Source of the DNA: Escherichia phage vB_EcoM_phAPEC6
DNA length: 64,000 bases
Direction: 5' to 3' (one strand)
Sequence record: MK817115.1
Shown: in pieces, positions 25,222-31,605 of the stretch
How the letters are laid out: each line of letters opens with the position of its first letter
Position numbering within the stretch: position 1 is the stretch's first letter
The notes under the pieces: generated by a model
The model's database searches: none
What the model was told of the DNA's origin: nothing
What the model saw: the letters and a program-made list of their open reading frames with translations, nothing else
Made by a program: the position numbers and the translations under genes

Positions 25222-25698
25222 TTATTTTAGAATGTATAAGTGTTTTTCTGCATTGACCAGTCGGTGATCAATGATTTCTTTGATAACGTTCCAGTTACCG
25301 CCGCCCAAATCGGCTCCAATTTTCGGGAAGTGTACATGAACATCTCGATCAACTTTACAAAAATAATTTAGATGTTTGAACACATCGTCGATTGCATCAT
25401 AACTGACATATTTAGCACCGTCATTACCGTACATTTTTTGGGTAATACAGTTTGCAATAATCAAATTATCGTTAATTGCTGAATATGCAATTTGTCCAAT
25501 TCTAAGAAATCCCATTTCCTTTTCATATGCTTTATAATCATCATATGCCATTGGGTAACGATTTCTTAGCTCTTTTGCAAAACCTGAACCCATTTTACCC
25601 TGTGCGTTACAACCATGAGCAATTATATGTATTGCTGTTTTATCATCTGTAACAGTACTGAATAATTCAAACAGATTACCTCGGTGTTCATGAATCAT
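25222..25698 (-). CDS. Macro domain-like protein (ADP-ribose binding/processing candidate)
   Basis: AIHIIAHGCNAQGKMGSGFA resembles macro-domain N-A-A-N / G-G-G signature region; 158 aa. Confidence 0.45.
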   Translation of the reverse strand: MIHEHRGNLFELFSTVTDDKTAIHIIAHGCNAQGKMGSGFAKELRNRYPMAYDDYKAYEKEMGFLRIGQIAYSAINDNLIIANCITQKMYGNDGAKYVSYDAIDDVFKHLNYFCKVDRDVHVHFPKIGADLGGGNWNVIKEIIDHRLVNAEKHLYILK

Positions 25699-26528: not shown

Positions 26529-26930
26529 TTATTTCCTTCTATTTCTTTGAAAAGCTTTAACAGCTTTAATAATACTGTTACACATTCGTTCAGTCAAATA
26601 CTTTTGACATTCTCGTACATCAATGTACATGAACTTATCCAATTCTGGATGACTCTTACCATATCTATTAGTGTAAGTACTTTTACAAACTAATTCATCT
26701 GGTATTGGTTTGTCTTTGGCAGTATAAAAGAAAAGTACTAACCTTTTTCCCTTTCTATATGATACATCACCAAGAAACAGAAGATCATCTTCATCGATTT
26801 CGTATCCTGTCTCTTCGAAACATTCACGTACAGCAGCTTCTTTGAAAGTTTCATTACCCTCAGCTTTCCCTTTAGGTAAATCCCAATGATTCTGTCCGTG
26901 TTGTATGTCCGATAAGTATCTGACCATCAC
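26529..26930 (-). CDS. NUDIX hydrolase
   Basis: Nudix box GKAEGNETFKEAAVRECFEETGYE. Confidence 0.8.
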   Translation of the reverse strand: MMVRYLSDIQHGQNHWDLPKGKAEGNETFKEAAVRECFEETGYEIDEDDLLFLGDVSYRKGKRLVLFFYTAKDKPIPDELVCKSTYTNRYGKSHPELDKFMYIDVRECQKYLTERMCNSIIKAVKAFQRNRRK

Positions 26931-29713: not shown

Positions 29714-29740
29714 GAAAAGGGACAGAATTAATCTGTCCCT
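29714..29740 (-). terminator. Intrinsic terminator after HPF-like gene
   Basis: AGGGACAGA / TCTGTCCCT 9-bp stem, U-rich tail on minus strand. Confidence 0.55.
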
Positions 29741-29750
29741 TTAGTATATA

Positions 29751-30083
29751 TTACTCTTCGTTTTCTGTCAAATCATCAAGAACTGGGTGTTCTGGATGGT
29801 TTCGGCGGTGTAATTTAATGCTTTTGTCTTTACTGAATACAGTTTCCATTTTTTCAAATGAATCACCAATTGCTTTGTATAAATCTGCTGCATCGGCAGT
29901 AACTGATTTACTACCTGATGTTAGAGTCACAGAGTATTGAGACTTATGCTCTTTCTTCACATGAACTTCAATATCCATTACAGTTGAAGTACGGAACTTT
30001 TCAAGACATTTAGCACCATCGTAAATTGCATCTTGAATTGCAAGAGTAAAATCAACATTACCTTGAATATTTAATTTTAGCAT
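29751..30083 (-). CDS. hpf: Ribosome hibernation promoting factor (HPF/RaiA/YfiA family) homologue
   Basis: MLKLNIQGNVDFTLAIQDAI...LEKF...DLYKAIGDSFEKME aligns by eye with E. coli HPF MQLNITGNNVEITEALREFV...DMYAAIDGLIDKL; about 110 aa as short-form HPF. Confidence 0.6.
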   Translation of the reverse strand: MLKLNIQGNVDFTLAIQDAIYDGAKCLEKFRTSTVMDIEVHVKKEHKSQYSVTLTSGSKSVTADAADLYKAIGDSFEKMETVFSKDKSIKLHRRNHPEHPVLDDLTENEE

Positions 30084-31194: not shown

Positions 31195-31605
31195 TTAATC
31201 GTAGTAAGTTCTACCTACAGTGATGTGATATTTAAAGTACTTGGTTGGTAGTCCTAGTTCATTTCTAATATGTGTGATGAAATCATCTTCAAATTCAATG
31301 ATAAAGAATGAACCTGGATTCTTTTTATCTTTTACTATCTCAATACAAGGATTGAACTTTATCTTTACTTTCATTCCATCGTACTTTTTCCAGTACTCTG
31401 GATTTGGTGGCACTTCACCACGAACGATACTGACATGTGCTCCCCATTGTGGGTCTTTAATATCAATATGTAAGTCAGTTCTGATGAAGTACTGGTAGTA
31501 TCGAACCAACTGTAATGGAAGTTGTAGTACTAACCAGAAGTCCTTCTTCTTTTTCATAGTGCCACGTTCTGGATCATACACCAGAGTTCCTTCCATTTCA
31601 ATCAT
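31195..31605 (-). CDS. 2H phosphoesterase-like protein (LigT/Acb1-like candidate)
   Basis: Two H-x-[ST]-x motifs (GAHVSIV and YHITVG) about 73 residues apart; 136 aa. Confidence 0.45.
   Translation of the reverse strand: MIEMEGTLVYDPERGTMKKKKDFWLVLQLPLQLVRYYQYFIRTDLHIDIKDPQWGAHVSIVRGEVPPNPEYWKKYDGMKVKIKFNPCIEIVKDKKNPGSFFIIEFEDDFITHIRNELGLPTKYFKYHITVGRTYYD

Follow-up and report, generated by a model that had tools for sequence, protein, structure and literature searches.

What does the small open reading frame (ORF) that combines two H-x-[ST]-x motifs contribute to Escherichia phage vB_EcoM_phAPEC6: the destruction of cyclic immune signals, the healing of RNA ends, or the processing of another cyclic phosphate? 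The first-pass annotation of the window, i.e. the whole stretch of 64,000 nucleotides analysed here, had proposed a compact 2H phosphoesterase, possibly an Acb1-like nuclease, in a T4-like phage. The last of these terms has to be replaced, as the region is 98.5-99.3% identical to the Escherichia phages SP27, ECO103 4-12-1, and 121Q (Asteriusvirus, genomes of ~350 kb), and the genome is consequently that of a Rak2-like jumbo phage of the 121Q/SP27 group. The RefSeq annotation of 121Q gives "hypothetical protein" for most of the genes read, including gp531, the orthologue of the ORF under study. No experimental work on any member of the compact 2H family to which it belongs was found in the literature.

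A compact and standalone 2H phosphoesterase

The 2H gene (Table 1) lies within a long co-directional array of minus-strand genes, in which the stop codon of the upstream ORF is found 7 nt before its ATG, and a 135-nt spacer separates it from the LysM lysozyme gene located downstream. Promoter-like sites are no commoner in the window than in shuffled sequence. Read on the reverse complement, the first motif is encoded by CAT GTC AGT ATC and the second by CAC ATC ACT GTA, which places the two histidines at residues 57 and 127, within one to two residues of the approximate positions (56 and 129) previously given to them. Among the 202 ORFs of the window (six-frame translation, at least 50 aa), this is the only one to contain two H-[hydrophobic]-[ST]-[hydrophobic] motifs, and the pair is therefore no chance pattern.

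Table 1. Coordinates of the features discussed in the text (window positions, unless another sequence is named)
Feature	Position	Strand	Basis or remark
Compact standalone 2H phosphoesterase ORF	31195..31605	-	136 aa, ATG start, stop codon included
First motif, H57-V-S-I (residues 57-60)	31426..31437	-	Direct sequence reading
Second motif, H127-I-T-V (residues 127-130)	31216..31227	-	Direct sequence reading
HPF/RaiA ribosome-associated factor	29751..30083	-	RefSeq 121Q gp533; cluster HMM 3.9e-34; cluster representative matches Pfam Ribosomal_S30AE
Palindromic hairpin	29716-29742		11 bp, strong
CCA-adding tRNA nucleotidyltransferase, 370 aa	27039..28151	-	Pfam PolyA_pol head and RNA-binding domains only
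Nudix hydrolase	26529..26930	-	Pfam NUDIX, E 1.1e-12
Macro-domain protein, DarG-like	25222..25698	-	NCBIfam DarG macro, E 3.9e-8; 121Q gp544, "macro domain-containing protein"
RlaP, 410 aa	44278..45510	-	Pfam PF10127, E 8.4e-16
ORF, 939 aa	47579-50398	-	121Q gp501, "hypothetical"
ORF, 898 aa	50924-53620	-	121Q gp499, "hypothetical"
Pnkp/PseT homologue (L070)	ECO103 4-12-1 249077-250009	-	~1.1 kb from the Rnl1 homologue
Rnl1/RnlA homologue (L070)	ECO103 4-12-1 251106-252248	-	~1.1 kb from the Pnkp homologue
107-aa ORF (L071)	ECO103 4-12-1 313596-313919	-	HVSV at 36, HCTV at 95
T4 gene 57B, Acb1	L007 5953-6411		
Thg1-like 3'-5' polymerase beside P0256	L055 7196-7999	+	PF04446; 424-kb contig
RNA ligase and DUF2828/DUF7788 genes of BF-like and Klebsiella Rak2-like phages	L008 6305-9513; loci L011-L024		1.7-3.5 kb upstream of the 2H gene

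The two motifs are strongly conserved. An alignment of 20 close homologues shows no variation at H57, H127, or T129, and S59 is retained in 90% or more of them; in homologue alignments, G131 reaches, like T129, at least 90%, and four residues of the N-terminal loop (Y10, D11, R14, and W24) are invariant as well. When the comparison is widened to 47 homologues, the most distant at 25% identity, no column other than those of H57 and H127 is invariant, and both motifs are present in 145 of 148 representatives of a deep search, with obvious fragments among the other three. In terms of structure, the predicted model displays an internally duplicated alpha+beta fold in which each motif sits on a central beta-strand, HVSI on strand 57-62 with R62-G63 behind it, and HITV on strand 126-132, followed by G131-R132. 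The 2H identity proposed by the first-pass annotation is thus upheld by the motifs, by the invariance of the histidines, by the predicted 2H fold, and by the matches to the 2H-SAK profile described below, and the gene is, as judged from sequence and model, that of a genuine 2H phosphoesterase. Because the two histidines alone are kept throughout the family, the protein is almost certainly catalytically active. A reverse-acting 2'-5' RNA ligase or a non-catalytic protein binding nucleotides or RNA would account for the weak matches of some members to "2'-5' RNA ligase" superfamily models and for a fold that is the generic LigT fold, but the strict invariance of both histidines favours catalysis over mere binding, and the ligase reaction of LigT-type proteins is generally taken as a non-physiological reversal, which counts against the ligase, so that this explanation appears very improbable.

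Relationship to Acb1, LigT, and 2H-SAK

While the 2H part of the earlier interpretation stands, the proposed membership in the Acb1 family does not. The Acb1 profile PF23474, on which T4 Acb1 (gp57B) scores 202.7 bits, does not match the window protein even at E<=10, nor any of the 47 family members at E<=1, and the comparison of the family profile with T4 Acb1 yields an hhalign probability of 0.8%. Sequence and profile searches of PDB chains with the 2H protein returned noise only, with no Acb1 chain, and an NCBIfam search gave no match. In Acb1, a U-shaped pocket is shut by a C-terminal lid formed by residues 145-152, including W147, while Y12, W74, and F107 stack on the bases and E141 reads the adenine (Hobbs et al., PMC9117128). 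In T4 Acb1, the second catalytic histidine (H113) is followed by 39 residues, as against nine in the window protein, in which the lid segment is therefore nonexistent; equivalents of the lid and of E141 and W147 of Acb1 (PDB 7t27, 9q2y) are accordingly lacking. Rather than a relative of Acb1, the predicted structure would suggest a compact clade situated at about the same distance from each known 2H clade. The two families also differ in their range: Acb1 is found in ~1,486 phage records, those listed being of 51-180 kb and mostly T4-like phages of 160-180 kb, whereas the compact 2H family is found in 76 records, almost all of jumbo phages, and in bacterial chromosomes. As a side remark, T4 gene 57B, although it is Acb1, still carries the name "RNA ligase" in RefSeq and in many records of T4-like phages.

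The profile check against the LigT families was likewise negative for the window protein, which matches neither PF02834 nor PF13563, and these LigT-type profiles are matched by only three to four of the 47 relatives, marginally (E 2e-3 to 1e-2). Compared to LigT/ThpR (PDB 1vgj, 4qak, 5ldi, 5h7f), the window protein is ~40 residues shorter, and it has an arginine (R62) after the first motif too, which makes for a more symmetric site.

On sequence grounds, the nearest curated family is the Pfam family 2H-SAK (PF22547), an RNA-repair 2H domain. The window protein aligns with this profile over residues 89-136 only, with 25.8 bits for a gathering threshold of 27 (E 1.4e-5), and 44 of the 47 diverse family members match it at E<=1, the best at 1e-8. 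Besides, a precomputed PF22547 domain is present on most close homologues, and one of them bears the UniRef name [quoted passage not shown]. The 2H-SAK domain, reportedly described by Burroughs and Aravind in 2016, is said to be the 2H phosphoesterase domain of the "Swiss Army Knife" RNA-repair proteins. Its compactness is similar (model length 124), but it occurs within multidomain SAK proteins, in contrast to the standalone window protein. Neither a SAK-type HAD phosphatase neighbour in the window nor a 2H-HAD fusion in the family was seen; a HAD hydrolase gene lies near the family member P0222, and a His_Phos_1 gene adjoins P0217.

The presence of 2H domains in jumbo phages is itself already known. 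Apart from the 2H identity reflected in Pfam and in UniRef naming, Iyer, Anantharaman, Krishnan, Burroughs and Aravind (Viruses 2021, 2022) reported such domains in jumbo-phage groups 2.2 and 3 and predicted that they resolve 2',3'-cyclic phosphates on RNA as well as ADPr>P, in partnership with RNA ligases, KptA or sirtuin, Macro, and Nudix proteins (PMC7824862, PMC9503650). The compact 2H family, to which their exemplar QDH83605.1 may belong, shares with these domains the phage groups and the predicted role. The sirtuin-2H-Nudix-cREC-PIN neighbourhood of Serratia phage BF was considered as a possible counterpart and set aside, its 2H protein being probably not the BF_0183 homologue; by accession numbering, the sirtuin AQW88637 is ~70 genes away from BF_0183.

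Distribution in jumbo phages and bacteria

By tblastn, the 2H protein is found in 76 phage records, nearly all of jumbo phages, which comprise enterobacterial Rak2-like phages, Vibrio phage 2.275.O, Bacillus phage G, Agrobacterium phage Atu_ph07, Ralstonia phage RsoM2USA, and a 595-kb metagenomic phage. Among the tblastn matches listed, the genes are labelled hypothetical or are unannotated, except for one "viral L protein" and "gp116" of phage G. In the same line, 42 IMG/VR loci contain the gene, mostly on contigs of 200-608 kb, and a profile search of 1.84 billion cluster representatives (50% identity) retrieved 1,104 proteins at E<=0.001, most of them standalone and of 130-170 aa.

The family also reaches bacterial genomes, in which a profile search of genome contigs, run with a tighter alignment of the 2H family, detected 18 loci. 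The carriers are several Lysobacter and Tahibacter species, Paenibacillus, Parabeggiatoa, Planctomycetota, cyanobacteria, and a Saccharibacteria MAG. There, the 2H gene stands alone, and these bacterial loci share no neighbourhood from one genus to another. A solitary gene in bacterial chromosomes fits a general function on RNA ends or nucleotides.

Repair genes of the phage and the question of an Acb1 analogue

In the window, the 2H gene is followed downstream by the genes for the LysM lysozyme and HPF/RaiA, three small ORFs, the genes for the CCA enzyme, the Nudix hydrolase, and a glutaredoxin, two further small ORFs, and the gene for the DarG-like Macro protein, whose relatives are named "Appr-1-p processing". 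HPF/RaiA is a phage-encoded homologue of the ribosome-hibernation-factor type, and a strong palindromic hairpin stands directly 3' of its stop codon. On the upstream side, RlaP is the orthologue of 121Q gp506, annotated there as "nucleotidyltransferase", and belongs to the RNA-ligase-associated Pol-beta nucleotidyltransferases (NTases) of RNA repair pathways; the ORFs that flank it have no Pfam match.

The CCA enzyme deserves closer attention. It covers only model positions 1-207 of 409 of NF008137, the NCBIfam "multifunctional CCA addition/repair protein", and it has no histidine at all after residue 207, so that the HD phosphohydrolase active site is absent, having been either lost or never present. 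This state is shared, as the HD dipeptide is missing from the C-terminal half of all 17 CCA enzymes linked to a 2H gene, over five lineages. In E. coli, the HD domain of the CCA enzyme reportedly provides 2',3'-cyclic phosphodiesterase, 2'-nucleotidase, and phosphatase activities, as Yakunin et al. are said to have found in 2004.

Searches at the whole-genome scale were carried out with ECO103 4-12-1 (352 kb), the closest complete genome. It contains exactly one member of the compact 2H family, one Macro, one CCA enzyme, one HPF, and two Nudix genes, and none was found for YqeY, NADAR, the BF-type RNA ligase, or the DUF2828 protein. Homologues of T4 Pnkp (PseT, E 6e-42) and T4 Rnl1 (RnlA, E 1e-58) were detected beyond the limits of the window, ~47-50 kb from the 2H gene. 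The T4-type anticodon-nuclease repair pair is thus encoded by this jumbo phage, in whose genome no homologue of RnlB was seen.

No Acb1 homologue was found in ECO103 4-12-1 either, nor any other candidate for this function, and the 2H protein is thus the sole 2H family member of a genome devoid of Acb1, a situation newly described here. This bears on the idea that the protein might be a functional analogue of Acb1 outside the Acb1 family, which would degrade cyclic (oligo)nucleotide immune signals, be they those of CBASS, those of type III CRISPR, or 2'-5'-linked ones as for coronavirus ns2. In line with it, the small viral signal-degrading 2H enzymes, Acb1 and ns2, seem to be the nearest to the predicted structure, and T4 Acb1 itself adjoins a tRNA cluster (1.5 kb) while being labelled as an RNA ligase in RefSeq. 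Nevertheless, we regard such an analogue as rather unlikely. It is similarly doubtful that the compact 2H proteins constitute, next to Acb1, an independent second family of phage nucleases that act on immune signals, near Acb1 and ns2 in structure and unrelated to them in sequence, whose targets could be cyclic oligonucleotides or 2'-5'-linked or NAD-derived cyclic signals, and not RNA ends. Such a role would be of greater importance, because these phages lack Acb1.

Recurrent neighbours in divergent huge phages

The genomic context was compared in 46 loci (window, IMG/VR, and GenBank), in which ORFs were called over 10 kb on each side of the 2H gene, overlaps were resolved by homology support, proteins were clustered, and the resulting cluster HMMs were identified with a check against Pfam. 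These loci were grouped into 20 lineages at 60% identity of the 2H protein, and 11 further metagenomic or genomic neighbourhoods of distant members, annotated with Pfam, complete the sample. The neighbours that recur in these divergent huge phages relate to tRNA, to translation, and to NAD/ADP-ribose. At least one of the partner families counted here and in the paragraph on NAD lies within 10 kb in 12 of the 20 lineages, and none does in the other eight. Within this distance, a CCA-adding enzyme is found in five lineages (also in Vibrio phage 2.275.O), YqeY, HPF, and a Pol-beta NTase in four lineages each, and both an RNA ligase (PF09414 with the PHA02142 OB domain) and a DUF2828/DUF7788 protein in three. 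In BF-like and Klebsiella Rak2-like phages, the genes for the latter two precede the 2H gene at a short distance (Table 1); Escherichia Asteriusvirus lacks both of them, at the locus as well as genome-wide.

The most specific recurrent partner is YqeY, which was experimentally shown to be a tRNA affinity enhancer in cis (PMC1865053). It is encoded in six independent neighbourhoods, always within 5 kb of the 2H gene (among them ~400 nt downstream for P0237 and 1.7 kb upstream for P0184), and occurs once as a fusion; a rough binomial estimate for YqeY lying within 5 kb in at least five cases of 31 gives P = 0.002. Serratia phage BF is among the phages with both genes, BF_0183 for the 2H protein and BF_0191 for YqeY. 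The fusion concerns P0035, a metagenomic protein of 335 aa and the one such representative among the top 150, in which the 2H domain (~1-155) is joined to a YqeY/GatB-like tRNA-binding domain (219-334, PF09424, E 4e-17). In addition, the gene of a Thg1-like polymerase stands directly upstream of the P0256 2H gene, with a single base between them, an arrangement suggestive of the pairing, in a huge phage, of the 2H enzyme with one that repairs tRNA 5' ends. In locus L037, the distance between the 2H gene and a Pnkp homologue is 1.1 kb; in L051, an RlaP homologue is found 5.4 kb away. Other distant members are surrounded by translation-related genes, namely EF-Ts and ribosomal protein L12 for P0218, EF-Ts near P0217, fragments of aminoacyl-tRNA synthetases for P0249, and S21 and peptide deformylase near P0260, whose gene has a DHH phosphoesterase gene directly upstream. 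To the best of this comparison, what is new is the link to YqeY by fusion and by neighbourhood, the proximity of Thg1 and Pnkp genes, and the absence of HD from the linked CCA enzymes, together with the explicit rejection of Acb1 membership.

A second group of neighbours points to NAD and ADP-ribose. A Macro gene lies 3-6 kb from the 2H gene in five of the 20 lineages, which are as distant from one another as 121Q, Bacillus phage G, and Atu_ph07 (~30% identity); NADAR is found within 10 kb in four lineages and Nudix or NadM-Nudix in five. Similarly, a faint Macro match is present near P0237, SIR2 1.7 kb upstream of P0194, NAMPT near P0184, Nudix near P0219, and NadM-Nudix near P0217, itself flanked by DUF4326 and His_Phos_1 genes. 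In the window, the 2H, Nudix, and Macro genes are all part of one co-directional array of 6.4 kb. One might thus consider that the 2H protein processes Appr>p (ADPr>P, ADP-ribose 1'',2''-cyclic phosphate) or a related NAD-derived cyclic phosphate in a route from 2H to Macro to Nudix, thereby clearing a by-product of NAD-dependent 2'-phosphate removal of the KptA or sirtuin type, or destroying NAD-derived host signals or toxins. The chemistry by which ADPr>P passes from 2H to Macro is established, and jumbo phages have been proposed to use it, but Macro, Nudix, and NADAR are also common phage auxiliaries that co-occur anyway (PMC9503650). KptA/Tpt1 has so far not been identified in this phage, and the most specific partners, YqeY (fused or neighbouring) and the adjacent Thg1, are directed to tRNA. 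We therefore consider an NAD-centred function improbable as the main role, while noting that it does not exclude an action on RNA ends, since RNA>p and Appr>p are both substrates of classical 2H cyclic phosphodiesterases.

A tentative role in RNA end healing

Of the functions considered, a 2',3'-cyclic phosphodiesterase of RNA or tRNA is the most likely for the 2H protein, albeit still with a little less than an even chance. In such a metal-independent enzyme, H57 and H127 would face each other across a pseudo-twofold cleft and would attack the strained cyclic phosphodiester by general acid/base catalysis. The substrate would be the 2',3'-cyclic phosphate carried by RNA ends, above all by tRNA ends, that are generated by metal-independent RNases of the host, for instance anticodon nucleases or toxin RNases. 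Opening of the cyclic phosphate would leave a phosphomonoester end, which could then be dephosphorylated and rebuilt by the tRNA-maintenance enzymes of the phage, the candidate partners being the HD-less CCA enzyme encoded 3 kb downstream, RlaP encoded 13 kb upstream, and Pnkp and Rnl1 encoded elsewhere in the genome. The 2H enzyme would thereby supply in trans a step beyond the reach of the HD-less CCA enzyme, with which it presumably cooperates.

This RNA-end function is suggested by the conservation of the active site, the proximity to 2H-SAK, the tRNA and RNA-repair neighbours, the HD-less CCA enzymes, and the presence of Pnkp and Rnl1. Several observations nevertheless weigh against it. 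The genetic linkage is loose, extending over kilobases and not operon-tight, and for eight of the 20 viral lineages the 10 kb on either side lack every partner listed. Since huge phages group their auxiliary genes in any event, part of the enrichment may be non-specific. Besides, the Pnkp homologue could itself heal 2',3'-cyclic ends, in keeping with the annotation of T4 pseT, which could make the 2H enzyme partly redundant; Pnkp and Rnl1 are encoded far from the 2H gene, and YqeY and the RNA ligase of the sister clades are absent from the genome. Finally, T4 Acb1 provides a cautionary analogy, being encoded close to tRNA genes and yet an anti-CBASS nuclease (PMC9117128), so that RNA-repair assignments of phage 2H proteins made from context are fallible.

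If the RNA-end function is true, the 2H enzyme would be another piece of the large toolkit that Rak2-like jumbo phages devote to tRNA and translation maintenance, and it would bring in trans the cyclic phosphodiesterase step that the HD domain performs in the E. coli CCA enzyme. Since the family is large, extending from jumbo phages of Escherichia, Klebsiella, Vibrio, Bacillus, and Agrobacterium to some bacteria, one biochemical assay would annotate many genes.

Additional observations

No Rfam family and no tRNA gene were found in the 64-kb window, and Pfam gave no match for the 10 small ORFs flanking the 2H gene or for several larger ORFs of the window. Two of the long ORFs, of 939 and 898 aa, correspond to 121Q proteins annotated as hypothetical (Table 1), and neither has a Pfam match at E<=0.001. 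Beyond the window, a 107-aa ORF of ECO103 4-12-1 that is not matched by the HMM of the 2H family displays two 2H-like motifs; it may be either a coincidence or a very reduced 2H-like protein.
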